Assembly: GCA_964389655.1 (NCBI GenBank) | Contig: CAYMED010000005.1 | Span: 33,081 to 97,080, forward strand | Direction: 5' to 3' | From: an uncultured Candidatus Poseidoniales archaeon | Lineage (GTDB): Archaea; Thermoplasmatota; Poseidoniia; Poseidoniales; CAYMED01 | DNA: 64,000 nt | In this document: piece by piece, positions 1,277 through 24,473 of the stretch | Numbering within the stretch: the stretch's first letter is position 1 | Layout: the number at the start of each line of letters is the position of its first letter | The notes under the pieces: model-generated | What the model was told of the DNA's origin: nothing | Seen by the model: the letters and a program-made list of their open reading frames with translations, nothing else | Database searches by the model: none | Translations under genes and position numbers: made by a program

Positions 1277-2911
1277 TCAAACGAAGGGAACAACACCGTA
1301 TTTGTAATCAAATAGGTAGAGCATGATGGGGAATAGGATGATTGCCATGGCATGGCTTCTCCGGATGCCAATTCGTTGAGGCAATAGGCCAATTCCGGTG
1401 CCAACTGCCATTACCAGTATCCCCATCCATGATGCATTAAACCAGGTTAATATTGTCAAGAATGCAATCACCCCTAACACTAGAGTCCGTAGAGGGATGG
1501 CCGCATGGATTCTCATAAACCAACGCCCGATCCCCATCATTAACGGTACTGCAATCAGACCAGAGGCAATGGTCACTGCTACAAAGATAACCAAGTCGCC
1601 GGGTGGTTGCACTTCAACCCAGTAATCGATAGGGTACATGCGGTCGAGTACTAGGGCTGCACCGGACCGTGGGCGGGCGATGATGTATAACCATCCGAGA
1701 ACCATGACAGTTACTGCGGTGTTGACTGCAGACAGGATCGCGATGATCTCAAGATCATCTTCGGAAGGTGAATCATCATCTGGGTCAAATGGCTCAAAGC
1801 GTTCTCCATCTTTTCGAGCACGGTCGAGCAGTCTGTCGATTCTCATCTCATCTTTTGGATTTGGATTTGGTGCTTGAAAGTGGAGAGCAGCACCAGCTGC
1901 AGCGGACCCATGTCCGATTGCAACAGCAGCAGCAGTCGACAAGGCTTTGGCTCTCATGGCTCCCGCTGCAGGAGCAGTTTCCCATTCCAAAAGATGAGCA
2001 GAAGGATCTATGACTCTGCGGATCAAGTTTCTTCCACTCATAACTAAGACAGTTGCTTGAGCAGCGGTCATCCCGGGTAAGAACCCCATCATGGCTCCTA
2101 TACCTGAGGAACCCATACAAGGTCCCAGGAGGCGTTTAGGCGGCGGGAGTTGCCATTCATCGTGTTGCTCGGGGATTTCCGACATTGTTACGTAAATGTC
2201 GATCAATCCTGCTACCCCGAAAAGACCCGCAAGTGCCGGTCCCAGCAACGTAGGTGATGGGATGCCAATTGGGCTATTAGCGGGTAATTGAAATACAGCA
2301 AATCCATAGAACCCAGCGAGCAAGAAATAACTGATGGCCGCAATAGTGCCTGCGAATCTAGAATCATCTCCGAGTTTACCTTTACTCAAGTTTTGAATCC
2401 ATATGGGCCATGACAATCTTGTACGTTCCGTGTAAAGAAGCATCAGCGTAATTGCAAGCAAGATCCAAGCTAATTGGCCGCGAATTTCCTGGTACCAACC
2501 CGTTTCAGGTCCGAATAATATTCGTCCAAGAACGAGGAGTGGGAGTGAGAGGATAAGGCCGAGCTGACTTCCGCGGGCTGAATATCCCACGCCAAGTGGT
2601 GCGTGACCTGAAAGAAGCATGCGGTGTCCTGGAAGAAGAGCAAGTGCAGTGGAATCTTCCGGTGCTCCCAATAATGCGGCGGGGACGTAGCCAACAAAAG
2701 TGTGAACTGTACCGCATGCAACTATGATAACGGCGACAGATTGCAATGAGACTCCCATTGAGATGAACACTGGTGTCAGGCTCAGAAGCACAAGTGCAAC
2801 TGTATTGACATGAAATCCGGGGATGAGTCCGGTAAGTGAACCCATGGCAATTCCGATGAACATTGCAACGAAAATCCATCCAAGTTCAACAATGAACACA
2901 GAGACATCCAT
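1277..2911 (-). CDS. Archaeal TctA-family (DUF112) tripartite tricarboxylate transporter-like permease
   Basis: [39 protein letters not shown] and RSGAA motifs; many TM helices. Likely start MDVSVF (2911); the ORF track start is 2959. Confidence 0.8.
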
Positions 2912-2924
2912 GAAATCGGTCTCC

Positions 2925-4499
2925 CTAGGTTGAATTATCCACGGTTTTGGGTTGTTCAAACACGAACCTGATTAGTGCTTCCTCTTCATCGAGTTCTTCG
3001 GCCAATATGGCAGACCAAAGGTGTACGCCACCGACATCACCCTCGACGCTTGACACGTTATCAAGTTCTACTTTGGCAGTTTTCGTCCGTGTAGCGTCAG
3101 AAAGCGTCCAGCCAATGCTTTCACTTCCCTCCAAAATTCCCTCGATGTGAACCTTTTCTCCCACTGCGTAAGACCAACGACTCATCCCATCCCACGCCAA
3201 CGTTGTGGGCTCTGCATCATTGAGGATGATAATCCACTGTACTGTGAATTTTAATCTAGAGTAATAAGAATCCCAAGAGATTTTTCCCCCCATAATTGTG
3301 TCGGATTCAGCATGTATTTCCTCCGAACGCGGCTTCTCCAACTCAAAGGATAGACGTGCTTTTGTGTTGGGATAGACTTGGTCCATTAGATATCCTGAGT
3401 CATCTTGCCCCTTGAGGCTGTAGGAATTATACCCATGTAATATCACTTCGTGACTGCCATTGAGGTATTGTTCAGGATTACGAGTGATATGAAATAATGA
3501 ATGAGTTGCATTGTAGTCTGAAGGGATGCTTTCTTCTTCAATTGTTGGGGCACGATTTGCATCTGTCGTTCGGTCAAGGCATATCTCGCCAGAGTCACTC
3601 CATACAAGTCGGCCTATCCAGTTGTTTAGTCCAAGAGAGGTTGCATTGGCGAGGTCATCGGGGCCGGGAAGAAAGCAGATCGATGCAATCCCATCTTGAC
3701 GTTCTATTCTCCACGATGATGATTCGTTTATTGCTCTCCCCTCAACAACAACGGCTTTTCCGATTTCATATGACCAAGAACTTGGTTCACTCGCCCAGTT
3801 AAGTGTGATGCGCGTTCCAATCGTCAATACAGTCAATTCTTCAGCACGAATTTGAAATTTCCATTTTGCGGCTTTTGAATCATAAACAACAATTCCACTT
3901 GCCTTGATTTCAGCACCCGCTTCAACCCAATCACTGGGATATCCCAACACAACCATGTATAGTGAAGTGAGTGAATTGGCATAGGATGGGTGATCCTGAA
4001 GGCTCAAACTTTGGTAATTTTCCCATGGCTCAAGTGTGCTGCCAATAAATCCCTGTATCTCAACTGCACTATCGGTGTAATTTGATGGGTCATGAGCAAT
4101 ATCCGATAACGTGGCGGTTGATGCCTCTCGAACTTCAAGAATTTCTATTGCACCAAACCCTGCGGCATTAAGGTAGATACTTCCGCGATAAGCGGTTACG
4201 TCCCCAGTAACTTGTATGATTGAACCAATAGGCGGCATATCCGGCCGTGTTTCAGTCCATTTCACGCGCAATACCGTATCAGTTGTTGGTTCACGCAGTA
4301 GGAGGTTTTTCAGATCGGAACCATCACTGTAAGGGTCTTCTGTCCATGAAACCAATTCACCCTCTACTCGAATCACATTTTGAATATTATTTTCCACTTC
4401 GCTAAATGACACCAAATCCGGGACTCGAACAACCGCGTAAAGGTTGAGACCTGCAACGATTAACACACCAAAGGCAAACATGGACCATAGTTTGGTCAT
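2925..4499 (-). CDS. Membrane-anchored extracellular protein with multiple OB-fold-like repeats
   Basis: N-terminal TM helix, then repeated V-x-V-x-G strands (VIRVEGELV, IGSIIQVTGDV..YRG, AVEIQGF, IGKAVVVEG, VGEKVHIEG) typical of OB folds; internal duplication visible. Confidence 0.6.
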   Translation of the reverse strand: MTKLWSMFAFGVLIVAGLNLYAVVRVPDLVSFSEVENNIQNVIRVEGELVSWTEDPYSDGSDLKNLLLREPTTDTVLRVKWTETRPDMPPIGSIIQVTGDVTAYRGSIYLNAAGFGAIEILEVREASTATLSDIAHDPSNYTDSAVEIQGFIGSTLEPWENYQSLSLQDHPSYANSLTSLYMVVLGYPSDWVEAGAEIKASGIVVYDSKAAKWKFQIRAEELTVLTIGTRITLNWASEPSSWSYEIGKAVVVEGRAINESSSWRIERQDGIASICFLPGPDDLANATSLGLNNWIGRLVWSDSGEICLDRTTDANRAPTIEEESIPSDYNATHSLFHITRNPEQYLNGSHEVILHGYNSYSLKGQDDSGYLMDQVYPNTKARLSFELEKPRSEEIHAESDTIMGGKISWDSYYSRLKFTVQWIIILNDAEPTTLAWDGMSRWSYAVGEKVHIEGILEGSESIGWTLSDATRTKTAKVELDNVSSVEGDVGGVHLWSAILAEELDEEEALIRFVFEQPKTVDNST

Positions 4500-11613: not shown

Positions 11614-12873
11614 GTGGCCAAACGCGTCCTTGTTCTCGGCTCCGGGGGGCGAGAACATGCAATCGTCCATGCTCTCTCTTCAGGATCAAATTCGGTTGAT
11701 GTACACAGCGCTCCAGGTAATGCTGGAACTGCCATGTTGGGAACGAATCATGATGTAGACCCCATGGACCCTGCAGCAGTCTGCGACCTTGCTGAAAGAA
11801 TTTCTCCCGACCTTGTTGTTGTAGGTCCTGAAGCACCTCTTGTGAATGGGGTGTCCGATCATCTCAGGGCGGCTGGTGTGGCCGTATTTGGCCCCTCATC
11901 GAAATTAGCCCAACTTGAAGGCGACAAAGGATTTGCTAAGAGCATCATGTCAAGTCTTGGAATCCCAACCTCCTCATCGGTGATCATCGGCCCGGATGAT
12001 GACCTCGACCTTGACCTGCATGGCCCTCCTTGGGTCGTCAAGCACCTTGGACTAGCTGGTGGGAAAGGCGTTTCAGTAACGAATGATTTAGAGGAAGCAA
12101 TATCTGCAATAAAAAGTGCCATTGAGAAAGATGGAGAGGTGTTACTGGAATCTTTTCTTTCAGGTGAGGAAGCGAGTATTCTTGCCATAATGGACGAAAG
12201 CGGCTATCACACATTGCCAGCCAGTCAAGACCACAAGCGAGTTGGGGATGGGGATGTTGGCCCAAATACGGGAGGGATGGGTGCTTATGCTCCAGCACCT
12301 GTCATCACAGAGGAAGTGCTTGAGCGTGTGCGGGTGAGAATTCTTGACCCCATGCATGCTTGGACAGTATTGCAGGGTGGTTTTCGAGGTTGCCTATACG
12401 TTGGGCTAATGATTGATGCAGTTGGCGACCCATATGTTGTTGAATTTAATGTCCGATTAGGGGATCCTGAGGCTCAGGCCACGTTGCCCTTACTCCAAAC
12501 GGATTTATTTGAGGTCTTTCTTGCCTCAGCAGAGGGGCGGGTGAATGAGATAAATCTTCAGATCATTGAGGGGGCTTGTGCTACGGTCGTTCTTGCGTCT
12601 GAAGGGTATCCAAATTCCAGTGTCGTTGGCCGCGTTATTTGCGGGGCAATTGATGAACAATTCTCATCGGCAACGGGCCGGACAATTGTCCATCATGGGG
12701 GGACCACGATGGAGGACCGTCAGTTGATCTCGACCGGAGGTCGTGTCCTAGCAGTAACCGGTCATGCTGATGATTTGGCCAAGGCAGTATCCTTGGCATA
12801 TGAGCGGATTGATATGATAGATTTGGAAGGTGGTTTCTATCGCCATGATATCGCACATCGTGCCTTGCGCTGA
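11614..12873 (+). CDS. purD: Phosphoribosylamine--glycine ligase
   Basis: GSGGREHA, APGNAG, VVGPEAPL, GLAGGKGV, QDHKR..DGD.GPNTGGMGAY, EFNVRLGDPE and GGRVL. Confidence 0.97.
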   Translation: MAKRVLVLGSGGREHAIVHALSSGSNSVDVHSAPGNAGTAMLGTNHDVDPMDPAAVCDLAERISPDLVVVGPEAPLVNGVSDHLRAAGVAVFGPSSKLAQLEGDKGFAKSIMSSLGIPTSSSVIIGPDDDLDLDLHGPPWVVKHLGLAGGKGVSVTNDLEEAISAIKSAIEKDGEVLLESFLSGEEASILAIMDESGYHTLPASQDHKRVGDGDVGPNTGGMGAYAPAPVITEEVLERVRVRILDPMHAWTVLQGGFRGCLYVGLMIDAVGDPYVVEFNVRLGDPEAQATLPLLQTDLFEVFLASAEGRVNEINLQIIEGACATVVLASEGYPNSSVVGRVICGAIDEQFSSATGRTIVHHGGTTMEDRQLISTGGRVLAVTGHADDLAKAVSLAYERIDMIDLEGGFYRHDIAHRALR

Positions 12874-12980: not shown

Positions 12981-15900
12981 GTGGATGATCACGAGAATGA
13001 GATAGATCGGTCGCCTCCGGTCGCTCTCGGCTTTCTAGTTCCTCTTGTTGCCGTACTTCTAGCATGGATGGCAGTAGAGGTGGCTGGAGTCGATAGCCTT
13101 CGGATGGAAGGGATAGAAATGAACTTGGGCGTGTTGTTTGCCGCAGCAGCGGCTAGCCTAGTAACTGCCCGCATGGTGAACCTCCCGAAAAACTCTTTTT
13201 TCACGCCCGTCCGCTTTAGTGGCTTGTTGCTCATTGGAAGTGCAATTGGTGTTTGGTGTCTTGTAGAATTTACCTACATCATTGTGTGGGTTGCCATTCT
13301 TTGTGGTCTTCTTCTAGCACTTGGACATTCTGCGTTAGATCGCGGACGCTTTGAGGAATGGACGATTGCAATTTTTGCGATATCTGGATTAATCGCAGCG
13401 GCTTATGTCGGTGCTTGGTCAAGCGAATATGCATATTTACCAGATTCAAGAACAGATACGGATGAGGATGGCTTGCAAGATTGGTATGAAAATTCCAGAA
13501 TGGAGCACCTCGACAGTAATTTGGCGGACCTTTCCAAGAGCGGGGGTGACACGATTAGTCCCTTCGAAGCAACTCATAGCATACGACCTTCGGAAGGGAA
13601 CTGGACAAATCTAAGCATTACGATTCCACCAGTAGGCGATGATTCTCTTGGGCATTTTGCAGTATTAATCGTCGACGATGACACAGTGTCTAGCGAAGGG
13701 CCCATTTTTCAATCCGGAAGTGCATATGCCTCTCTTCAAAGTGGAACCTCTTCTGTAGGCAGAAACCAAAATGGCTTTTCTTGGACAGGGTCTTATAATT
13801 TTACAGAAACCACTGGCCTTACCTTGGCACTTTCGACTGCATCTCAAACAGGCAGGATTGAAGTGGTCTTGATTGAAATGAATTCGGGCGAAAATCTTGC
13901 AGATGCCTCAGCTAGGGGATCATCTCTTCTCTCAGTTACACCAAAGTTACTTGACCCTGCCTTTGCCGATAGCAATGGTGATGGGATCAGTGATGCTTCT
14001 ACAATGCTCGAAGGCAATGAGCAGGCTGAAGGAAGTATACAAATGTCTTTGGGCGTTTCAGAAAATACAATTGTTGATGCCAAACGCTTGATTACTGGAC
14101 AACTGTTTTTTGCAATTGTCTTCACTTCAATTGTGCTTGGATTCTTAGTGGCAGTATTGCAACGTGGCATTCTACTTCCTGAGGGAAGTGCTGGCTGGTG
14201 GTCATTCATGCCGCAGCCCTCTGGGCGTACACCTTCGCGGGCAGCACTTCCACTCTATGTTGCCCTGTTTGCTGGCGTGCTTGGCTTTTTGCTCGAATTT
14301 ATTTCATTTTCACTGGCAACGCCAGTGGAAAGAATTTCGCAAGTAATGCCTCAATCTGTGTTCTGTGCTGACGAAACTGGCTTCGGCTCTCTGTTTGGCG
14401 TAAATTGTGGTGTACATTTCATCGGCTCATGGTGGCCTATTCTGAATTTTGCAGCCAGTCTTATCATTGCTTATTTGTGGTCTGAAAGAATGCGCACGAG
14501 AGCGCTAATGGGCGGTGCTACATGGATTCTCTATACGGCTAGTTCATGGCAAGAAATGGGTATGTGGTCAACTCCAATCTTAGAAGGTAGTTCTGGAAAG
14601 TTACTCTGGTTTGGTATCACCTTCATCACTTTCATTGCGATTTATCTTTGGTCGACTCATGAGAAATATGGGCAATGGTCTCCGAGGAACGAGCGCGGTC
14701 AGGCTAGTATGTGGTTATCTTCTCATGGACGTACTGTCATGCTGTGGACTGCGTTTGCAGTAGGGCTTGCAGTTCGGATTCAATGGAACGTCGTACCTGC
14801 CATGAATGCTTCAGGAACTTCTGGCTGGGACATGACTGGTGGATCTGACCCATGGTACATGAAACGAGCTATCGATTATGTTCTTGCCCAGCATGCTCAT
14901 TTCATGTTTGATCCAGATCGGGCCTATCCAATTGGTGACATTAATCCACGACCTCCACTATTCGGCTGGAGCATCGCCCTAGCGGCAACATTACTCGGTA
15001 CTTTGACTGGGATGGATATTCAATCAGAAGCCGTTTGGTGGGCCCTTGGCTTCATGCCTGCCTTTTTCGGTGCACTCATTGTTTTCCCGATTTATGCATT
15101 GACAAAGGACGTATTTGACAAGAATTCTGCGATTATTGCCTCTTGGTTGATCGCATTGATGCCAGGTCACGTTAGCCATAGTACCTTTGCACTAGCAGAT
15201 CACGATGCATATGTTTTGCTTTTCCTTTCACTTGCCTATTTCTGTTACCTGCGTGCGGTAAAGGAAGCGGGGATGGACCGTCTAGTGAAGAAAATATCTT
15301 GGCGCCCACAGCATATTATTGCAGCATTTAGTGCGGTGCATCGAGAGCGACCAAAGGCAGTAATTTGGGCAATTCTAGCCGGAATCTCGATGGCAGCAGT
15401 TGCTCTTGGTTGGAAGGGTTTTGTGTATGGTCTTGGTATACTCTATATCGCATTCTTCTTGCAAGTTGCAGTGAATCTATTCCGCAGAACTGATTCAACG
15501 GCCTTGTCAGTGATTATGATTGAGATGCAGTTGGTTGTAATTCTTATCTCATTGCCCTTCTATGGGCATCCATCATTGGGTCTTCTTTCGGATCCAACAG
15601 GCTTCCAACCTTTGTTCTATATCTTTGGTTTTACAGTAGTAACTGCATTTATCGCAGTATCGTACAGGGACAAACCTTGGCTGCTTGTTCTAGGAACAGG
15701 TATCGCTACGGCTATGGTATTCTTGGTCACTCTTTGGATCCTTCTTTGGGCAGATATCTCCAATGCCTGGAATGTGTTGTTCACAGGAGGTGGATATTTC
15801 AGCAAAAATAAGATTTTTGGAACAATTGCTGAAGCACAGGCTCCAGCACGTGGTGTGCTATTCGGATCTTTTGGCCCATTTGTGGGTATATTTGCCCTAT

Positions 15901-18900
15901 TTGGCGGGTTTGTGGCCTTGTGGCACGGGTTGAAGCGCCGCCAAGCAAATATGGTTGTCATCTCTGTTTGGACTCTTGTTTCAGCCTACATGGCTTGGAC
16001 CGCTGGACGATTCGTGTTCAATGCAACTCCGCCCATTGCGGTAGTTGGTGCGTGGTCTTTTGTCGTGCTTTGGGGGAAGGTAGGGGGTACTGACTTTGCC
16101 AAAACATGGCGCCGCCTTGGTGTATCAACCCCTCGTGCGAGAATTAGCGCCACACGTGCTTCTCTTCGCCGTCATCCATGGTTGGGAGCAGTCTCTCTCG
16201 TTTTCTTGATCATCGCAGCCCAGCATGTCAGTTATGGCGTTGATGCGGGAATTCCACGAGGTTCCTCATCTATGCAGAGAGTTGACCAAGCATTCTATGA
16301 TATCGCTCCTGATTTACTCCGAACTGAATTTTTGGGTCTCTCCGTTATGAATTCTCAGCCACATGAAGGTGCTTGTGACCAGCGTGGATACCAGCCATGC
16401 CGTTACCTCAATTCGTTTGGTCCAGGTTTCAATGGCCCTTCTTGGAATAAAGCCTATGATTGGTTGGCGCATCAAGACCTCACCCACCCGGATGCAAATA
16501 CTTCTGAACAATGTACTGCTCTAAGTGGTATTTGGCATGCAGATTCAGCGGTCTGTGAGCAACGATTTGGAGATCGTCCAGCTTTTGTCTCGTGGTGGGA
16601 TTATGGATTTCAAGCACTCTCTCAGGGTCAACATCCGACTGTCGCAGATAACTTCCAGACAGGGATACCATCTAGCGGAAACATGCTACTCTCACGCGGA
16701 CAAGATGACCTTCTTGCCCTCTTTATCACGAGATTGGCCGATGGCGATCGACAAGCGTACGATGCTTCGGTTGATGGCGATTGTGGTGAAGCACTTGGTC
16801 GTTGTTTTACTCGGTCTTTTAATGCCGCTTTGGATGCGCATTTCACGAATACATCTGAACTTGAGGAATTTAAGGCGCTTCACGCAGGGCTGACTTCTAC
16901 AATTGCCAAGAACCGTTTTCTTGCCGTTAAGCAAACAGCCGGGACAGTTATCCTAGCAGAAGGTGCTGAAATCATCGGTGGAATGCCCACAGGGAATACC
17001 ATCTGGAAAGTATATGACAATCGAAACCCGATTGCCTGTAGTCAAAACTGCCGTGGCGATGCTTATGCAACTGAAGCAGCAGCTTTGCAGGTGTTTGATG
17101 ATCGTAGTGCATCTCGTGAATCAACTCAAACAACAACTCATTACATCATTGGTGATTACTGGTATACTGCAGATACATTGGACGAGTTTGATTCTGTAGC
17201 AACATCCTTGCACCGGAGCAATGCACGTATTGCGTTGATGCGTAATTTCCTCAGTAACTCGCAGACAATGAACCAAATGGTGGATCTTTATGCGAATTTA
17301 ACCAAGATTTCTTATTCTGTGAAGGATTCATTTGGTCAAATTGGAGATACACTGGAACGTAATCATGACATTCGCTATTTTGCAGTTGACAATCGCTTGT
17401 ATCCCTTAGGTGGGCGCTACAATGAAGATGCTAATTATCATGGTGGACAACCGCAGGGGATTTTCCATGCACCTACTCGCTTAGCAGGTTTGGACCTTGA
17501 ACATCACTTGGCTACAACTTATGAGACCATGCGGGGGACTGGCGGTCTTGTCGATGAGATGACCGCTGCTGAATATGAAGAAACAATGCGTACTGAATCG
17601 CTTGCTCAGACGTCAAACGATCAGCGAACTACTTTGAAAGACATCCGCGTGGACCAAGATCCTATCTTCTTTGAGACAATGGTTGCGCGAACTTATGTTG
17701 GCTATGGAGCGACTTCTTTGGGCTTACCAGATGCCGCTCAACCAAATCCTCATTTTCAATATTCTTCGGGTACTCCAAGTACGGCCCTACAATCAGCATA
17801 TCCTCTTCCGGGCGCGATGTTGAATCATTTTGTAATTTCTAATTGGGATGAAGTTGATTCATCAAATCCATACTTCTCAAAGGCAAATACGGGTGTCAAG
17901 GTGTTGAAATATTATCATGGTCTTGAAATTAATGGGAAGGTGACTCTAGACATAGATGGGAAACCAGGTGCTGGTGGAGTTCGTCTCTTAGTTGAACGTG
18001 ATGCCTTTTCCGGAGAGATGGGTGATGATGATCAAGCCGTTTATTGGATACCCATTGCTGCAGTTGATGCCGAACCAGATGGATCATTCCATGTGCGTGT
18101 TCCAGCAGGTAAAATTCGCATCACCGCATTTGTTGGTCAAACGGACTTAGACACAGCCCGAACCAGCCTACAAACAAGCAATGTTAGGGATATGATCTAT
18201 GACCTTATTGATGCAGAAGGCGGTTCCGCACGAACCGTAAACACGATCACTGGAATTCTTGGTGGTGTTGCAGGAATGCAGTGGCTTTCGCAGGAAGAAA
18301 TAATTGTCCTTGGAGATGAAGCGTCTGAACCGGGACATCATCGCTCAGTTGAGCTGACAGTCAGTCCTAGTGGGGCTGATGGAGTACTGTCATGGACAGG
18401 TCTTGAGGAATTCGAAAATATCGCAGTTGAAGACGTAAATGTCCGATTAGAAAATATCGATAATGGCTTTACTTACAATTTTACAACTAGCAATGGAAGT
18501 TATGATGGAAGCCGATTAATCGTAGGTGAAGGTGAGGCTGAATTCATAGATGAACCAGGTCAATTTGATGCTGATGGAATTGCTACTGTCAATCGATTTA
18601 CTGGAAACCTTACTAGAACCATTGAATCTGGACACATATATGCTGACTCTGGACATTATTCAGGGACGGGGTGGTTTAATGGAACGATCGATGATGACTC
18701 TAGTTCTTGGTCTAGTTGCAATTCAAATGGAACAATGCCAGAAAATGCTAGCCGTTGTCTCGCGTCTCCTACGAGTGTTCAGTTGAGGGCCGATTCAGTA
18801 AATGGAACAGGTCGCTTTGCAGCAGATTCGACTTCAACATTCACGAAGTCACTTGTATCCGCACGCTATGTGGGATCGGGTAGTTTTGAAGGCGTTGGGA

Positions 18901-21900
18901 TTGCAAATGGGACTGGCCGCTTCAATGGAAGTGGGATTTTCTCTGGCCCAATGATAAAGCAAGGCTCCTTTTACTTCGTTGATGCCATGCCAGGTAGATA
19001 CAATGTTTCAATTGATTTTGGCCCAAATCAGAGTGCGTTGTTGCCAGAACCTTTGCTCATCACATTGGAGCCAGTAACTGACTTGGCTCTTCAGGTGGGT
19101 GCATCAAGGATACACGGGGAATTAAGGGATCACCTAAATGACCCTGTATCTCTCAATCTGTCTCTCATATTGGCAGAAAATGAGGCCTTAATCTCGATGG
19201 AGGAAACCGATGCCGAAGGTTTGTATGAATTTTCACCACTTCCGCCAGGAACTTACTGGTTGCGAACTGATACTGATTTAGATGGGTTGTATGAATATAA
19301 CCAGACCTTCATATTCGATGCTGAACCAAGTAACGAAACATTTTCCCCTCCCTTCCTTCCAATGATTGACCTTGACCTTACAATTCGGTGGGATAATGGT
19401 TCAGGTCTTGTTCCAGTTCCAGAAGGACATATGATTAATCTCACCTCCCCGGATGGCCAATTTAGCGAAGTCGCCATTGCGAATGAGACGGGTCAAACTA
19501 GGCTGGAAATTCCCAAAGTAGAGGGTGTTTCTTTCTTGGTCGTAGAAACTGCCAATACGGCAGCAGGGCCACAAATACTCACATTTGAAGTGTCGCTTGG
19601 CTCGGATCAGACTTTGGTACTCGATTATCAGCCAAGTGCTGTTGTTTCAGGTACACTTCGTATTCAGGACCCAGGTCAGCAAACAGGATTCTCTACGCCA
19701 AAGGGGGTAGATGTGCATTATACATGGGGGAATTATTCCCTTGCCAGTAAGAGTGCAGATGAGGGTGTTTGGTCTCAGTACTTACCCGCTTCAGTTAATG
19801 TGAATATTACCGCACAGACTTTTGGACCCACTGTTGGCGGGATTCGTGTAAATGTTCCTGCGGATGGGTTGACTGGTCAATTGATCAATATGGAGAGTGC
19901 AGTTACAGTTACTGGCCAATTGATCATGGCAGCAAGCAACGTCTCGTATGATGGCCAACTTCCTGGCTGGCTCTTTGCTGAAATAATGGCGGTCAATCAA
20001 GCGACAGATGCTAATGGCCTAGTTTGGAAAAGCAGCGTCGATGAGATGGGTCAATATCAGTTTGCAATTCCTGATGGAACATATGATGTCTCGGTTTCTG
20101 AATCACGTTTAGGTATGGCTCCGTTTTCATTAACAGTTGTATTTGATGAGAATAGTACTGTGTTCCGAGATATTACCCTTGAACCCGATAACATCACTGT
20201 AAACTTGAGCATTTTCTTAGACAGTGGCCGAGATGGCGATTTGGCGAATGGTACTCTGCGCCCAACGACCATCATCCTCAACCCATATGGGCGAATGCAT
20301 GGCAGCATCTTGGAAATCAATGCAACTGACATGGTTGATGGTAATGGAACAACACTTGCAAATATTTCCGTATCTCTTGCACCAGGCCTCTATGAGGTAT
20401 TGCTGGAACCTGAATTGGCTGAGGACCCAAATGCATCAGATCATCAACAGCGCCCCAACGCTGAAATTTTGATTCCAGTAGAAGTTGATGGGGATGTGAA
20501 GCACCACAACATCACATTGGCACCAGAATGGCTATTTACAGGTGAACTGCAAAGTTTCGCGATTGGTGACTCGGGCGATAATCTAGTGCGTAACACTTCA
20601 TTCCTGCTTGAACCAGCCAATAGTTCAGATGGCCTAACTCCTGTTGATGTCCCAGTCGATGAGAATGGCACGTTTGCGATGTATATCCCTGAAGGTGACT
20701 ATGTAATCCTAGTTGACGCTTTTTTGCCAAAGGAAGGAGAAGGTAGGGAATTACTTCGCCAAGCTTTGTCAGTTCAACCAAATAATGGTGTGTCTCGTAC
20801 TAATTTGACATTAACAACCAGTCAGCCCGCTACTGTGAATTTGACACTTTGGATGGATGCAGGGAATGGGTCTGCCCTTGCAGCTACTGCGGTCAAAGCA
20901 GTCAGCAATTCAGGACTTGGGAATGTAACTCTTCCTCCCCTAAACTCATCTGGTTTTGCCTCTGCCGAATTGATGCCTGGAAATTGGAGCCTCGAACTGA
21001 ATGAGACAATTGGGGATCAACGCCACATACTTGCAGATTCTGCGCGAGATCTCGGCGTGCTCAATGCAGGGTCGACCAAGATGGTTAATCTTACGTCATC
21101 TACTTCTGTGAGAATTGGTGGAAAGGTATTCTATGATTTAGACGGTGACAACCTATGGGACCAAGATGAAAGTCTAATGGGTGCTGAAGTTCAGATCACG
21201 AATTCCACATCATCGGTATCTCTTAATTCAACCTCTGATGGCACTGGGACGTGGGTTACCTTTGTTCCAGTAGACCTAAATTATTCGATCCATATTTCCA
21301 TGGACGGATATGATAATTCCTCATTCAGCCGAAAAATCAATTCGACTCATGACTCCAATGATACTGCTCTCACTGCAGGTGAAGTGCCCATTAATGGCAC
21401 TGTAAGTTGGGCGCTTAGCGATCCATTGCCTATTGATGCAGTTGTCCGTATTCTTCCCGTTATTGGGCAAGATTCCGATAGATCTAGAGAAGTCACTTTG
21501 CCACTTGTGAATGGAACGTGGAATGGGACTTGGGAACAGCTTGTCTCACCAGGTGATTACGTAGTGTATGCTTCAGCAAATCATTCAAGTGAAGTCATTG
21601 GATATGTTGGAGTGACCTACGTTCATGTTGGTGTCAATGGAACAGATACTGTTTCAGTAACTCTCGATGTCGGAGCACTTCTGAAACTAGATTCAACTTG
21701 GACGAATTATGACGGTAATTCAACTCATCTTGGAGAACTCCCTGCTGAACTTGCTGTGGTTCAGATCAGCATTGATCTAGAAGACGGCCGGAATTGGAAT
21801 GAAACCATTGATTCGGATGGAACCGTAGAGTTACTGTTGCCGGTCTCTGGAGTTCAGGCAGATGTTGAATTTTCACTCGTAGAACGCGGTAGGATGATGA

Positions 21901-23186
21901 ATTACAGTGGTGGTCTATTTGCCCAATTACCAGATCGTGTAACGATTGAGAGAACCATTGAGGCAAGCCGTATCAGGGACCACAGCGTTGATGTTGACCT
22001 GATATATGCAAATGGATCTGTTGCCGATGCCCTTTCATTGCAATCAGCGCGTGATGTCAATGACCATTATGCCCCTGTGTTAGTACAAGCTCGTGTCTCC
22101 TACTTGGGGACTGAGTCTCTCGATGAGATTCAACTGACGGCTTCAATGGGGGTGGGTACTACGATTCCAACTAGTTGGAACCTGACTTTTTCAGATTCTG
22201 AGAATGGCCCTTGGAATCAAACAAAGGATCTCACATTGGGCCTTGACTCAGAATCAAGTGCTGTGGTTTGGGTGCGCGTATTGCCTCCTCCCGCGAATGA
22301 AAGCACTGCTAAAACAGGAGGGGATGTTGTGCAGATACGCGCAAACAGTGGGAGTACAACCAAAGAATCGACTTTCAAGATCGAACTAGATCCAAAGCGG
22401 GAGGTTGTTGTGCGAATACTTACTGAAACTCTTTCCCTGGGCCGTGGGAGTTCTGGAGAGGTTGAATTATCGATTGACAACCTCGGAAATGGCGAGGAGA
22501 AACTCGAGTTTGAGCTCGTAGGTAATCCCTTCCCCGCGGCATGGTCCGTACCAACTCCAAGTTCTGCAGTTGTAGATGCACGCATTGAAAACCGCACGCA
22601 TTTGATTCCAATCAATGCACCCATTGATGCGGATGTTACCTATAGCGAGACAATTCAATACCTAATCCGGGGTGAAGATGGAAATGTTAGAGCAGAAGTC
22701 TCGTTCAAACTCGATATTGCGCAGGCCGATGTGCGTATTATTTCAGTACGGCAGGCAAACATTGCTACAGTTGGTGGCTCCATTCTTGTTGACGTCGATG
22801 TGGTCAATGATGGTCCAATTACGACTTCTGAGATGACGGTCTGGGTCAATGCAACAGATAATTCTAGAAATGCATCTTTACCTTTCCAATTAGAGGGGGG
22901 TCAAAACCGCACCCTTTCTCTTACACTTCCTTCGGGTGATCGAGTTTCTACCTTTGAAATTGATGTAGATCTTGATATTGGGGAGACTGACCATGTTTCA
23001 GGTCTGCATTGTGATATCGGTGTCAAAGATGATCACTGCCAACAAATTCGCCTAACTGTTGATGCAACTCAACTTTCAGAGCCGAGTAATGCATTGCCAA
23101 TTGTCATCGCTTTAGTGCTTGCAGCAATTGCAATTGCAATTGTCTTGCAACGCATCCAGAAGTCTCCCAAAGGACCGAGATTCTGA
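12981..23186 (+). CDS. aglB: Giant (3401 aa) STT3/AglB oligosaccharyltransferase with extra N-terminal membrane region, long Ig/transthyretin-like stalk, CARDB-like domain and C-terminal TM
   Basis: GSDPWY, YP.G..NPRPPLF, DHD (15198), TIAE (15822), RF, SWWDYG (WWDYG at 16593-16607) and HPTVADNFQ motifs. These are followed by repeated beta-sandwich units (e.g. TDAEGLYEF..LPPGTY, VDENGTFAMYIPEGDY, GKVFYDLDGDN) and a terminal TM + KSPKGPRF. Confidence 0.9.
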   Translation: MDDHENEIDRSPPVALGFLVPLVAVLLAWMAVEVAGVDSLRMEGIEMNLGVLFAAAAASLVTARMVNLPKNSFFTPVRFSGLLLIGSAIGVWCLVEFTYIIVWVAILCGLLLALGHSALDRGRFEEWTIAIFAISGLIAAAYVGAWSSEYAYLPDSRTDTDEDGLQDWYENSRMEHLDSNLADLSKSGGDTISPFEATHSIRPSEGNWTNLSITIPPVGDDSLGHFAVLIVDDDTVSSEGPIFQSGSAYASLQSGTSSVGRNQNGFSWTGSYNFTETTGLTLALSTASQTGRIEVVLIEMNSGENLADASARGSSLLSVTPKLLDPAFADSNGDGISDASTMLEGNEQAEGSIQMSLGVSENTIVDAKRLITGQLFFAIVFTSIVLGFLVAVLQRGILLPEGSAGWWSFMPQPSGRTPSRAALPLYVALFAGVLGFLLEFISFSLATPVERISQVMPQSVFCADETGFGSLFGVNCGVHFIGSWWPILNFAASLIIAYLWSERMRTRALMGGATWILYTASSWQEMGMWSTPILEGSSGKLLWFGITFITFIAIYLWSTHEKYGQWSPRNERGQASMWLSSHGRTVMLWTAFAVGLAVRIQWNVVPAMNASGTSGWDMTGGSDPWYMKRAIDYVLAQHAHFMFDPDRAYPIGDINPRPPLFGWSIALAATLLGTLTGMDIQSEAVWWALGFMPAFFGALIVFPIYALTKDVFDKNSAIIASWLIALMPGHVSHSTFALADHDAYVLLFLSLAYFCYLRAVKEAGMDRLVKKISWRPQHIIAAFSAVHRERPKAVIWAILAGISMAAVALGWKGFVYGLGILYIAFFLQVAVNLFRRTDSTALSVIMIEMQLVVILISLPFYGHPSLGLLSDPTGFQPLFYIFGFTVVTAFIAVSYRDKPWLLVLGTGIATAMVFLVTLWILLWADISNAWNVLFTGGGYFSKNKIFGTIAEAQAPARGVLFGSFGPFVGIFALFGGFVALWHGLKRRQANMVVISVWTLVSAYMAWTAGRFVFNATPPIAVVGAWSFVVLWGKVGGTDFAKTWRRLGVSTPRARISATRASLRRHPWLGAVSLVFLIIAAQHVSYGVDAGIPRGSSSMQRVDQAFYDIAPDLLRTEFLGLSVMNSQPHEGACDQRGYQPCRYLNSFGPGFNGPSWNKAYDWLAHQDLTHPDANTSEQCTALSGIWHADSAVCEQRFGDRPAFVSWWDYGFQALSQGQHPTVADNFQTGIPSSGNMLLSRGQDDLLALFITRLADGDRQAYDASVDGDCGEALGRCFTRSFNAALDAHFTNTSELEEFKALHAGLTSTIAKNRFLAVKQTAGTVILAEGAEIIGGMPTGNTIWKVYDNRNPIACSQNCRGDAYATEAAALQVFDDRSASRESTQTTTHYIIGDYWYTADTLDEFDSVATSLHRSNARIALMRNFLSNSQTMNQMVDLYANLTKISYSVKDSFGQIGDTLERNHDIRYFAVDNRLYPLGGRYNEDANYHGGQPQGIFHAPTRLAGLDLEHHLATTYETMRGTGGLVDEMTAAEYEETMRTESLAQTSNDQRTTLKDIRVDQDPIFFETMVARTYVGYGATSLGLPDAAQPNPHFQYSSGTPSTALQSAYPLPGAMLNHFVISNWDEVDSSNPYFSKANTGVKVLKYYHGLEINGKVTLDIDGKPGAGGVRLLVERDAFSGEMGDDDQAVYWIPIAAVDAEPDGSFHVRVPAGKIRITAFVGQTDLDTARTSLQTSNVRDMIYDLIDAEGGSARTVNTITGILGGVAGMQWLSQEEIIVLGDEASEPGHHRSVELTVSPSGADGVLSWTGLEEFENIAVEDVNVRLENIDNGFTYNFTTSNGSYDGSRLIVGEGEAEFIDEPGQFDADGIATVNRFTGNLTRTIESGHIYADSGHYSGTGWFNGTIDDDSSSWSSCNSNGTMPENASRCLASPTSVQLRADSVNGTGRFAADSTSTFTKSLVSARYVGSGSFEGVGIANGTGRFNGSGIFSGPMIKQGSFYFVDAMPGRYNVSIDFGPNQSALLPEPLLITLEPVTDLALQVGASRIHGELRDHLNDPVSLNLSLILAENEALISMEETDAEGLYEFSPLPPGTYWLRTDTDLDGLYEYNQTFIFDAEPSNETFSPPFLPMIDLDLTIRWDNGSGLVPVPEGHMINLTSPDGQFSEVAIANETGQTRLEIPKVEGVSFLVVETANTAAGPQILTFEVSLGSDQTLVLDYQPSAVVSGTLRIQDPGQQTGFSTPKGVDVHYTWGNYSLASKSADEGVWSQYLPASVNVNITAQTFGPTVGGIRVNVPADGLTGQLINMESAVTVTGQLIMAASNVSYDGQLPGWLFAEIMAVNQATDANGLVWKSSVDEMGQYQFAIPDGTYDVSVSESRLGMAPFSLTVVFDENSTVFRDITLEPDNITVNLSIFLDSGRDGDLANGTLRPTTIILNPYGRMHGSILEINATDMVDGNGTTLANISVSLAPGLYEVLLEPELAEDPNASDHQQRPNAEILIPVEVDGDVKHHNITLAPEWLFTGELQSFAIGDSGDNLVRNTSFLLEPANSSDGLTPVDVPVDENGTFAMYIPEGDYVILVDAFLPKEGEGRELLRQALSVQPNNGVSRTNLTLTTSQPATVNLTLWMDAGNGSALAATAVKAVSNSGLGNVTLPPLNSSGFASAELMPGNWSLELNETIGDQRHILADSARDLGVLNAGSTKMVNLTSSTSVRIGGKVFYDLDGDNLWDQDESLMGAEVQITNSTSSVSLNSTSDGTGTWVTFVPVDLNYSIHISMDGYDNSSFSRKINSTHDSNDTALTAGEVPINGTVSWALSDPLPIDAVVRILPVIGQDSDRSREVTLPLVNGTWNGTWEQLVSPGDYVVYASANHSSEVIGYVGVTYVHVGVNGTDTVSVTLDVGALLKLDSTWTNYDGNSTHLGELPAELAVVQISIDLEDGRNWNETIDSDGTVELLLPVSGVQADVEFSLVERGRMMNYSGGLFAQLPDRVTIERTIEASRIRDHSVDVDLIYANGSVADALSLQSARDVNDHYAPVLVQARVSYLGTESLDEIQLTASMGVGTTIPTSWNLTFSDSENGPWNQTKDLTLGLDSESSAVVWVRVLPPPANESTAKTGGDVVQIRANSGSTTKESTFKIELDPKREVVVRILTETLSLGRGSSGEVELSIDNLGNGEEKLEFELVGNPFPAAWSVPTPSSAVVDARIENRTHLIPINAPIDADVTYSETIQYLIRGEDGNVRAEVSFKLDIAQADVRIISVRQANIATVGGSILVDVDVVNDGPITTSEMTVWVNATDNSRNASLPFQLEGGQNRTLSLTLPSGDRVSTFEIDVDLDIGETDHVSGLHCDIGVKDDHCQQIRLTVDATQLSEPSNALPIVIALVLAAIAIAIVLQRIQKSPKGPRF

Positions 23187-23210
23187 TGACCTGTCACGTT
23201 TTCGACAGGT

Positions 23211-24473
23211 TTGATGAGGGGACCAATCCGTGGGGTCGAGTACCTTTCTGAGCCAGACCTTCCACAGGCTTACAGCGCCATTGACCCTTTGGCAGATGGG
23301 TATGGGAGTAATGATGGGCGAACGAGCCGCCCATTGTGGCGAGATGGATTAGATAACGTTCGTTCCTCAAGACGCTCTTCGCGAAGGTCAGGGATCAATA
23401 TTCTCTTCATTACTTGCTTGGCCCTATTAGGCTGGTCTGCAGCACCCCCTCTTTTTGGAATGTGGGGTGACCTTCTTGAAAGTGAATTAACCGATTCTGA
23501 TGCACTTGAATGGCCTTTTGTATCAAGTGGTATCTATGCCTTAGCAGAATCCGAATCGCTGACGGGAAAAGGCGTACGCGTTTGTGTCGTTGATACTGGG
23601 ATTAATGCAAACCACCCGGATTTTTCATCGACAAAGATCGTATTTCGAGATTTCTTGGGCCTTTCTGAAGTACCAATTGATCGTGCAACTTCGACACACG
23701 GTACGATGATGGCAGGCCTTCTTGCAGCAAATGGGACTCTTCGTGGTGCAGCACCCGATGTCACCCTCCTTGTTGCAGTTGCTTTGGGCGATGATGTTGC
23801 CTCATCAGGTACGGATGATCGCGTTTCCCGTGCAATAGAGTGGTGTTGGAAAGAGCAAAATTCTGACATTATTTCGTTGAGCTTAGGTGGGGCTGCTGAT
23901 GTCAGCAATCCAATGGGTTCTCGAACAGTGGAACAAGTTGAGATGGCACTAGATCGCGGTGTCTTTGTCGTAGCTGCAGCTGGAAATGATGGTGGAGCGG
24001 GTGATGATGGATTTGTGGCTACGCCTGCAAATGTGGATGATGTAATTGCAGTTGGCGCCATATCAAGAAATAGTACTTTGTGGGATTTCAGCAGTGCAGG
24101 GTCCTCGATTGAAGGAGCGAGTGGAAAACCTCGGCATGCCCCTGATCAAAAGCCAGAACTCGTAGCCCCAGGTGCTTCCATTATTTCGACTGGTGCAGGC
24201 GCCCTATATTTTCAATCATCGGGTACCTCTGATGCTACGGTATTCGTAACAGGTGCGCTAGCTCTTGTTCTTGAGGCTGAACCAGAACTTCAGAGTTCAC
24301 ATCCTCGCGCAGGAAGGGGAACAATAGCACTCGTCAAAGAAGCGCTTAAATCGAGTGCACAGCCAACACCTTACCAAGCAGAAAGTGGGCACGATTTACG
24401 CTATGGATATGGTGCACTAGATGCCGTAAAATTTCATGCAGAGGTTTCTGCTGCTCTGAATTTAAATTCCTGA
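23211..24473 (+). CDS. Membrane-anchored S8 subtilisin-like serine protease
   Basis: Catalytic triad motifs VVDTG, HGTMMAG and SGTSDAT, oxyanion AAAGND, KPELVAPG, YGYG; one TM near aa 62-80. Start uncertain. Confidence 0.9.
   Translation: MMRGPIRGVEYLSEPDLPQAYSAIDPLADGYGSNDGRTSRPLWRDGLDNVRSSRRSSRRSGINILFITCLALLGWSAAPPLFGMWGDLLESELTDSDALEWPFVSSGIYALAESESLTGKGVRVCVVDTGINANHPDFSSTKIVFRDFLGLSEVPIDRATSTHGTMMAGLLAANGTLRGAAPDVTLLVAVALGDDVASSGTDDRVSRAIEWCWKEQNSDIISLSLGGAADVSNPMGSRTVEQVEMALDRGVFVVAAAGNDGGAGDDGFVATPANVDDVIAVGAISRNSTLWDFSSAGSSIEGASGKPRHAPDQKPELVAPGASIISTGAGALYFQSSGTSDATVFVTGALALVLEAEPELQSSHPRAGRGTIALVKEALKSSAQPTPYQAESGHDLRYGYGALDAVKFHAEVSAALNLNS

Follow-up and report, generated by a model that had tools for sequence, protein, structure and literature searches.

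A giant AglB-type oligosaccharyltransferase with an additional membrane module and a predicted doubly anchored stalk in a Poseidoniales archaeon

The locus described here raises the question of whether a single open reading frame (ORF) of 3,401 codons can be a genuine oligosaccharyltransferase (OST) and, if so, what its unusually large additional parts would do. In the surface ocean, Marine Group II archaea rank among the most abundant archaea, and they are still uncultured. The ORF, here called giant aglB, lies in a 64,000-nucleotide (nt) stretch of DNA (positions 33,081 to 97,080 of contig CAYMED010000005.1, assembly GCA_964389655.1) from an uncultured Candidatus Poseidoniales archaeon; this whole stretch is referred to as the window, and coordinates are those of the window unless another contig is given. 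The source genome of 2.1 Mb is 93% complete, with 104 contigs and 5.7% contamination. A search of the whole genome for STT3 found giant aglB as its sole STT3-family gene, and it is also the second-longest ORF of the genome. It begins with GTG, shows zero internal stops across its 3,401 codons and has an even GC content over its whole length.

We conclude that the 3,401-amino-acid (aa) product is, almost certainly, a real, fused and active-looking AglB. Judged from its sequence, it is the organism's single AglB, that is, an archaeal STT3-type OST of family GT66, and is catalytically competent. It would move lipid-linked glycans onto Asn-X-Ser/Thr sites (sequons) of secreted proteins at the outer face of the membrane. 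For the additions we favor a structural role, as parts of a glycosylated arch, and we put the probability of the joint explanation (a fused, active-looking AglB plus a structural glycosylated arch) at about 0.6. The gene and its parts are the following.

12981..23186, + strand: giant aglB gene, one ORF of 3,401 codons plus stop.
12981..13418, + strand: first half of the N-terminal membrane module (N-module), helices 1-5 at residues 14-34, 45-65, 74-91, 98-119 and 124-146 (AlphaFold, hydropathy).
13419..14060, + strand: genus-specific soluble insert, residues 147-360, 214 aa, between helices 5 and 6.
14061..14699, + strand: second half of the N-module, helices 6-10 at residues 361-394, 420-445, 484-501, 505-525 and 536-559.
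14700..16250, + strand: STT3/AglB GT-C transmembrane (TM) core, residues 574-1090 (Pfam STT3, TIGR04154, VIA, Foldseek).
16251..18356, + strand: AglB extracellular catalytic domain in enlarged form, spanning residues 1091 to about 1792; WWDYG at nt 16593-16607, DNFQ at residues 1223-1226.
18357..23072, + strand: stalk, residues about 1793-3364, divergent tandem beta-sandwich domains (Pfam and structural matches).
23073..23183, + strand: C-terminal membrane anchor and basic tail, TM segment at residues about 3365-3395 (core about 3368-3390), hydropathy 3.13.
23151-23183, + strand: terminal-Phe tail, residues 3391-3401, small residues and a terminal Phe (...KGPRF).

The catalytic motifs were read from the product as GGSD623PWY, D740-H-D742, T948-I-A-E951, W1205WDYG and D1223NFQ. 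D623, D740/H741/D742, T948 and E951 were invariant among 42 aligned sequences and the residues of WWDYG were invariant or nearly so, while the Ile and Ala of TIAE varied. WWDYG (residues 1205-1209) was moreover identical in all 121 homologues examined, and it aligned with the WWDYG of Archaeoglobus fulgidus AglB-L, AglB-S1 and AglB-S2. By analogy with 3WAJ and PglB, we take D623, the DxD motif and the Glu of TIxE to be catalytic. The Pfam STT3 family (PF02516) was matched at residues 622-1021 with 58.8 bits, against a cut-off of 24.5, and the closest solved structure by sequence turned out to be A. fulgidus AglB-L (3WAJ/5GMY; phmmer E value, 8e-13).

Two AlphaFold models were used, one of residues 1-1200, built with 42 aligned sequences (predicted local distance difference test score [pLDDT], 71; predicted template modeling score, 0.71), and one of residues 1091-2290 (pLDDT, 79). 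When compared by VIA, residues 586-1200 of the core model matched 3WAJ_A with a Z score of 29.8 and a root mean square deviation (rmsd) of 3.7 over 434 aligned residues, and human STT3B (6S7T_A) with a Z score of 27.0. In a Foldseek search with the core model, the top 19 matches were all OST catalytic subunits (AglB, STT3, or PglB). The protein therefore combines a 13-helix GT-C core homologous to STT3/AglB/PglB with the catalytic acidic residues and the WWDXG motif of that group.

The likeness to A. fulgidus AglB-L (3WAJ, 3WAK, 5GMY and 7E9S; chains of 793-875 residues) extends over the same GT-C core, with the acidic residue of external loop 1, DxD, TIxE and WWDYG followed by an NFQ-like segment, and into a homologous C-terminal soluble domain (Z score, 9.7). 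The window protein, in contrast, is about four times longer, has a core identity of only about 20%, and adds a 573-aa, 10-helix N-module, a stalk of about 1,570 aa, a second TM segment and a cytoplasmic tail. Alignment by sequence to the solved AglBs ends about 45 residues past WWDYG; beyond that point the soluble domain matches at the level of the fold, with 3WAJ_A residues 498-868 matching residues 1150-1792 (positions 60-702 of the model; Z score, 9.7; 245 aligned residues). Since this part of 3WAJ aligns to residues 1150-1792, the protein retains the ordinary AglB soluble domain, at nearly twice its size (about 640 versus about 370 aa). Pfam AglB_core-like was matched weakly in this domain, residues 1400-1700 show 46-61% identity across the order, and most of the other long AglBs fetched from Thermoplasmatota have homologous counterparts to parts of residues about 1297-1896.

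The stalk that follows measures about 1,570 aa and consists of domains of the CnaB, transthyretin or CarboxypepD_reg, SdrD_B and PEGA-like kinds, with a weak CARDB-like component. The Pfam cut-offs were passed by CarboxypepD_reg (PF13620; 60.8 bits, against 32.3) and SdrD_B (PF17210; 35.6 bits, against 29.7), and PEGA-like and weak CARDB-like signals came from the distal stalk. The structural matches were CnaB2 (8BDW; Z score, 10.4), the transthyretin-like domain of carboxypeptidase D (5AQ0; Z score, 9.8), SdrD (4JDZ; Z score, 8.9) and Gram-positive pilins. In the window protein, CARDB at residues about 3258-3336 stayed below its cut-off (12.5 bits, against 22.7) and choice-of-anchor-T was a weak hint only, while precomputed matches to NEW3 (PF10633) and CARDB (PF07705) are on record for some orthologues; to judge by the sequence, the domains of these two families are probably present in the window protein in a diverged form. 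No internal repeats were found in the stalk at the BLAST level. Orthologues are collinear through its whole length, with the identity dropping to 20-30%.

The domains of the stalk have the same fold as the shaft domains of Gram-positive pilins and the B repeats of MSCRAMM adhesins (SdrD B, 4JDZ; CnaB2, 8BDW, with an rmsd of 2.3 over 86 aligned residues). Unlike those shafts, it is archaeal, double-anchored and sequon-rich, lacks sortase signals, and is part of an enzyme rather than a free adhesin.

The distribution of sequons along the protein is highly uneven. Of a total of 70, 62 lie within residues 1830-3365, where 15.8 would be expected from the composition (about a 4-fold enrichment), while residues 1250-1830 contain 2, with 4.2 expected. 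The sequon density of the whole protein exceeds the 95th percentile of the genome's ORFs. Many of the positions are conserved in 26 to 34 of 35 diverse orthologues, the most constant being N2423 (34), N1976 (32), N2674 (30), N2484 (28), N1876 (27) and N2562 (27). Closely spaced Cys pairs also occur in the segments predicted to be extracellular. The enrichment and positional conservation of the sequons are consistent, if indirectly, with a distal stalk that is glycosylated at fixed sites.

The C-terminal TM segment is the strongest hydrophobic segment of the whole protein and stops 6 residues before the C terminus. A TM segment ending 4-11 residues before the C terminus was present in 113 of 114 full-length homologues. 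The tail of the window protein is short and basic and ends in ...KSPKGPRF; those of other Poseidoniales orthologues end in RRGPKF, SGPGF, GQMPF or GSGSRF. The terminal Phe was invariant in the 42-sequence alignments and in every distinct Poseidoniales tail examined.

Two explanations of this tail were tried and rejected. A general sorting signal was dismissed since a terminal Phe occurs in just 5 of the 128 tail-anchored frames of this genome and the motif solely in AglB. Processing by the PGF-CTERM/archaeosortase system was dismissed since the C terminus, ...EPSNALPIVIALVLAAIAIAIVLQRIQKSPKGPRF, has no PGF motif. Other proteins of the genome, giant surface proteins among them, do have PGF-like ends (e.g., ...GGFVPGFPVGLAALALLGAAFGARRKQE), and an archaeosortase A homologue is also encoded there (TIGR04125, at 111 bits with a cut-off of 75). 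A Pfam search of the genome for Exosortase_EpsH gave no match, with a control that was itself insensitive. The two archaeosortase loci lie outside the window.

G000:C15:32879-33724 and G000:C10:26018-26815: archaeosortase A homologue and a weaker second copy.

At the other end of the protein, about 573-585 membrane-rich residues precede TM1 of the STT3 core and form ten helices in the model, with pLDDT low to middling for helices 1-5 and mostly 80-93 for helices 6-10. TM1 of STT3 in solved OSTs runs from the inside to the outside. Counting back from this orientation, we predict that the N terminus is inside and that residues 147-360 are outside. Several features are compatible with this topology: the charges of the loops, the acidity and sequons of residues 147-360, and the presence of Cys462 and Cys476 as a pair in a loop that is predicted to lie outside. 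The invariant residues of the N-module include R64, E125, R395-G396, E502(-R503-W504), W515, Y518, E525, W543 and E571, of which E125, R395, E502 and E571 sit at predicted cytoplasmic ends of helices.

The N-module is kept in all three Poseidoniales families and was found solely inside giant AglB frames, in 30 of the 31 Poseidoniales genomes searched. It had no credible match in 30 genomes of sister lineages, and its profile, searched against 1.84 billion proteins, gave 98 matches, all of which were giant AglBs or truncated fragments of them; neither search revealed a stand-alone N-module or a split orthologue. One of the fragments among the database matches ends in the adapter-like LLYTSPSPRD. 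The N-module also had no Pfam family and no ESM Atlas neighbor. VIA, applied to the module as folded within residues 1-1200, returned only generic matches to 4-helix bundles for residues 37-153 (Z scores of up to 8.2) and no separate match for residues 361-560. By these searches, the N-module is an orphan 10-helix membrane module specific to Poseidoniales.

The soluble insert that interrupts this module is acidic and beta-rich, contains three sequons, and is predicted to be extracellular. It is flanked by D-rich motifs of the TSP3-like, calcium-binding type, DTDEDGLQDWYEN and DSNGDGISD. Its beta strands, at residues 208-300, were modeled with low to moderate pLDDT, and no Pfam match was obtained for residues 147-360. 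The insert is confined to the window protein (P0001) and two others (P0002 and P0003), all of one genus, and appears as a gap in the other aligned Poseidoniales orthologues (80-95% gaps). It explains most of the excess of the window protein over the usual length of about 3,200 aa.

To see how widely this architecture is distributed, we searched 41 Poseidoniales genomes, which represent 3 families and 15 genera, with the Pfam model for STT3. Every one of the 41 contains one giant STT3/AglB gene, with an open frame of about 3,000-3,540 aa in 34 of them and about 3,200 aa being typical when the frame is complete. The longest AglBs seen are the window protein and, with 3,527-3,542 aa, its genus-mates. 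The alignment with orthologues of 3,181-3,539 aa is collinear from end to end, with 35-43% identity and few gaps, and in the closed genome G026 a single tblastn high-scoring segment pair spans residues 361-3331. In the databases, 797 proteins of 1,870-5,952 aa, most of them of 3,160-3,300 aa, match the core region; these homologues are labeled Candidatus Poseidoniales, Poseidoniaceae, Thalassarchaeaceae or "marine group II/III euryarchaeote," and the UniRef name of one of them is dolichyl-phosphooligosaccharide-protein glycotransferase.

Two of the shorter frames, in G003 (1,603 aa) and G006 (2,238 aa), were re-read; they coincide with N runs of 30 and 100 and reflect gaps or masking in the assembly, not a natural splitting of the gene. 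The remaining shorter Poseidoniales frames are in fragmented assemblies, near contig ends where examined.

G003:C1:1438500-1452500: short-frame locus L031, N run and frame change.
G006:C9:5000-18000: short-frame locus L032, N run and frame change.

Outside the order, the STT3 Pfam search found AglBs of about 2,290-2,390 aa in sister lineages of the same class, and a bimodal length distribution in the rest of Thermoplasmatota, with many families at 2,000-2,850 aa and others at 900-1,430 aa. A TM segment followed by a basic tail is also the C-terminal arrangement of most long AglBs in the sister lineages (about 2,300-2,390 aa) and in other Thermoplasmatota (2,083-2,846 aa); since they share this feature, the double anchor is, on sequence comparison, old. 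Most of these proteins have in common with the window protein the core, a long extracellular beta-rich region and the C-terminal TM segment with its basic tail, and parts of residues about 1297-1896, and sometimes of 2348-3190, are detectably homologous. They differ in being 550-1,300 aa shorter, in lacking the terminal-Phe (...G-x-x-F) tail and in having no adjoining subtilase that we could find, and the loci outside the order align with the window protein only from TM1 of STT3 on. A 2,619-aa AglB of another Thermoplasmatota family (locus L014, G144:C52:1-7932) has about 228 residues with about six hydrophobic segments before its core, an extension without detectable kinship to the Poseidoniales N-module; this protein reaches the end of its contig, and the available part contains no C-terminal anchor.

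The results above can be set against the preliminary description of this gene, which had been made from the sequence alone. Its anatomy of an extra membrane part, an STT3 core with all catalytic motifs intact, a stalk and a second, C-terminal TM segment in one chain is borne out, including the approximately 600 extra N-terminal residues, the transthyretin/Ig-like repeats with an SdrD-like unit, and the dense packing with sequons. Two of its proposals stand in part. The stalk exists, with a length of about 1,570 instead of about 1,750 aa, since residues about 1150-1792 belong to the enlarged AglB soluble domain, and the NEW3/CARDB-like domains are on record in some orthologues but fall below the Pfam cut-off in the window protein. 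Extended AglBs, which it had noted for some Thermoplasmatota, proved to be the rule in Poseidoniales and to occur in the sister lineages and many other families. Its proposed roles for the loop, a scaffold or chaperone for giant substrates or a structural envelope element, are candidate functions here too, and glycosylation of the stalk by the molecule itself or by adjacent copies has the indirect support of the enriched and conserved sequons. The misassembly or consistently split orthologues that it had named as grounds for refutation were not encountered, with no genuine split orthologue among the 41 genomes.

How might such a protein work? It is one chain in which selection has kept three additions to an ordinary AglB, namely, the 10-helix N-module, the enlarged soluble domain and the stalk with its second anchor. 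In the explanation that we favor, the stalk would lead to the second TM helix and the short cytoplasmic tail, so that the ectodomain, with the C-terminal two-thirds of the protein, would form an arch from membrane to membrane. Its distal part would be heavily N-glycosylated by the same molecule or by neighboring AglB molecules, with the catalytic-proximal domain being kept free of sequons. The stalk would then be a permanent, glycan-coated element of the envelope, serving as a spacer or as a glycocalyx scaffold round the enzyme. On the cytoplasmic side, docking or assembly is the probable task of the N-module and of the conserved C-terminal tail. Considered by itself, the structural role of the additions as a glycosylated arch, which is suggested by the sequences and the models, has in our estimation an even chance of being correct. 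The STT3 protein of a relative, Picrophilus torridus, was among only 30 proteins reproducibly found in the culture supernatant (PMC8345856), and by analogy this may be taken as circumstantial support for exposure or abundance of the protein.

Several points weigh against one or the other part of the favored explanation. A structural role normally implies a high copy number. The TIGR04154 model (archaeo_STT3, the archaeosortase A system-associated subfamily) covers residues 586-1239 with its profile positions 2-571 of 831, but the score of 194.9 bits lies below the curated cut-off of 450 bits and leaves the protein outside that subfamily as the model defines it. The DK/MI motif of the Ser/Thr pocket was not located by sequence alignment to solved AglBs. 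The two models span residues 1-2290, and the domain make-up of residues 2290-3365 is drawn from few Pfam matches. Finally, the P. torridus supernatant also contained abundant cytoplasmic contaminants, and the species is a distant relative (PMC8345856).

The alternative that survives best is that the stalk and the N-module act in catalysis or in the handling of substrates, which we regard as unlikely, though it retains more weight than any of the others. In its variants, these parts might keep nascent giant surface proteins close to the active site, link AglB to the Sec translocon or to a lipid-linked-oligosaccharide flippase, or serve as an adhesin for particles or polysaccharides. The many giant, sequon-rich secreted proteins encoded by the genome (up to 5,033 aa) would suit such an activity, as would the resemblance of the stalk domains to the shaft domains of adhesins and pilins, the invariant charged residues of the N-module at predicted cytoplasmic ends of helices, as for a docking surface, and the sequon-free catalytic-proximal domain. 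However, searches of the N-module and the stalk turned up no domain recognizable as one for binding, chaperoning or transport, and an adhesin usually exposes a free tip and does not return to the membrane. The identity falls steadily along the stalk to 20-30%, as would be more natural for a spacer than for a site of specific binding. Docking or the handling of substrates may also go together with the structural role.

A bolder extension of the structural idea takes the N-module and the terminal-Phe tail as the two halves of an intra- or intermolecular clasp, with the glycan-coated arches being the main lattice of the outer envelope of Marine Group II cells. The 2,270-residue ectodomain would thereby become a closed ring. 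We consider this quite improbable; if it were true, the cell's one N-glycosylating enzyme would at the same time be its main wall-building protein, in place of a conventional surface-layer (S-layer) protein.

A further alternative comes from the genes next to giant aglB. Its upstream neighbors are genes for a CDP-archaeol synthase and a glutamine amidotransferase, and purD; downstream lie genes for an S8 subtilase, a 1,488-aa beta-helix protein and a STAND-TPR protein. The stop codon of aglB is TGA at 23184-23186, with a second TGA right after.

11614-12873: purD, directly upstream of aglB.
23190-23209: 6-bp perfect hairpin, CCTGTC-ACGTTTTC-GACAGG, filling the 24-nt gap between aglB and the subtilase gene.
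23211..24473, + strand: membrane-anchored S8 subtilase, a separate gene with a TTG start, 24 nt downstream of aglB (Pfam Peptidase_S8, 156.8 bits).

The hairpin could be an attenuator, a processing site or a chance occurrence. A scan for promoters and terminators of the bacterial type gave counts equal to those of shuffled controls and is uninformative for an archaeon. As to other giant ORFs, the genome contains some of 5,033, 3,099, 2,920 and 2,758 aa and more, and several of these have 2-4 sequons per 100 residues, compared with a genome median of 0.38.

The order purD-giant aglB-S8 subtilase, on one contig and with fixed spacing, recurred in most of the 41 Poseidoniales genomes. It is conceivable, although we hold it to be distinctly less probable than a role in substrate handling, that giant aglB encodes a polyprotein, with the subtilase cutting between the AglB soluble domain and the stalk and freeing a C-terminally anchored, heavily glycosylated surface protein. 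The freed stalk would be a substitute for an S-layer, made beside its own glycosylating enzyme. In accord with this, the best subtilase orthologue is directly downstream and on the same strand in most of these genomes, little DNA separates the two genes (24 nt in the window, and a small gap in loci L032 and L033 as well), the subtilase has an N-terminal TM segment and, as read from its sequence, an apparently intact Asp/His/Ser triad, and the AglB of a Thermoplasmatales relative was found in a culture supernatant. Yet purD, an unrelated housekeeping gene, is conserved upstream, wherever the contig allows, as well as the subtilase is downstream; gene order here is generally frozen, and the adjacency of the subtilase therefore says little about functional coupling. 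Doubly anchored giant AglBs occur across Thermoplasmatota with no subtilase beside the long AglBs outside the order within the flanks fetched. The region around residue 1790, moreover, is conserved and was modeled as continuous folded domains (residues about 1650-2220, mostly with pLDDT of 81-94) rather than as a linker, and no cleavage motif was identified.

An artifact, in which misassembly or mis-calling would have joined an ordinary aglB to a neighboring surface-protein gene, and for which the 104 contigs, the contamination of 5.7% and the seven relatives with shorter open frames could be cited, has a negligible chance of being the explanation and is effectively refuted by the one giant gene in independent assemblies of all 41 genomes, the closed G026 among them, by the N runs in the two short frames re-read, by hundreds of full-length database proteins from different sources, and by the even GC content along the gene.

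The window protein, then, is unlike every characterized AglB in its N-module, enlarged soluble domain, stalk and second anchor. The eukaryotic OST (STT3A/STT3B; 6S7O, 6S7T and 6EZN) offers an instructive comparison, as its catalytic subunit is homologous (Foldseek E values of about 1e-8 to 1e-10) and its core is likewise ringed by extra membrane helices and by lumenal or extracellular domains. The window protein, by contrast, carries its extra helices and ectodomains fused within a single polypeptide, and they show no detectable homology to the accessory subunits; that the fused parts are functionally analogous to those subunits is speculation. No description of the giant AglB architecture was found in the searchable full-text literature, and the databases annotate the family as STT3. 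The sole mention found of a Poseidoniales oligosaccharyltransferase is that of a gene more transcribed when one Poseidoniales genus is active.

With its orphan membrane module and its sequon-rich, doubly anchored stalk, the only N-glycosylation enzyme of Marine Group II is three to five times the usual size, which points to an unstudied coupling of protein glycosylation with the architecture of the envelope. It is also a concrete and highly conserved target for work by metaproteomics, cryo-tomography or heterologous expression. To those who study OSTs, it offers a natural single-chain enzyme with fused helices and ectodomains, which can be set beside the multi-subunit eukaryotic complex.

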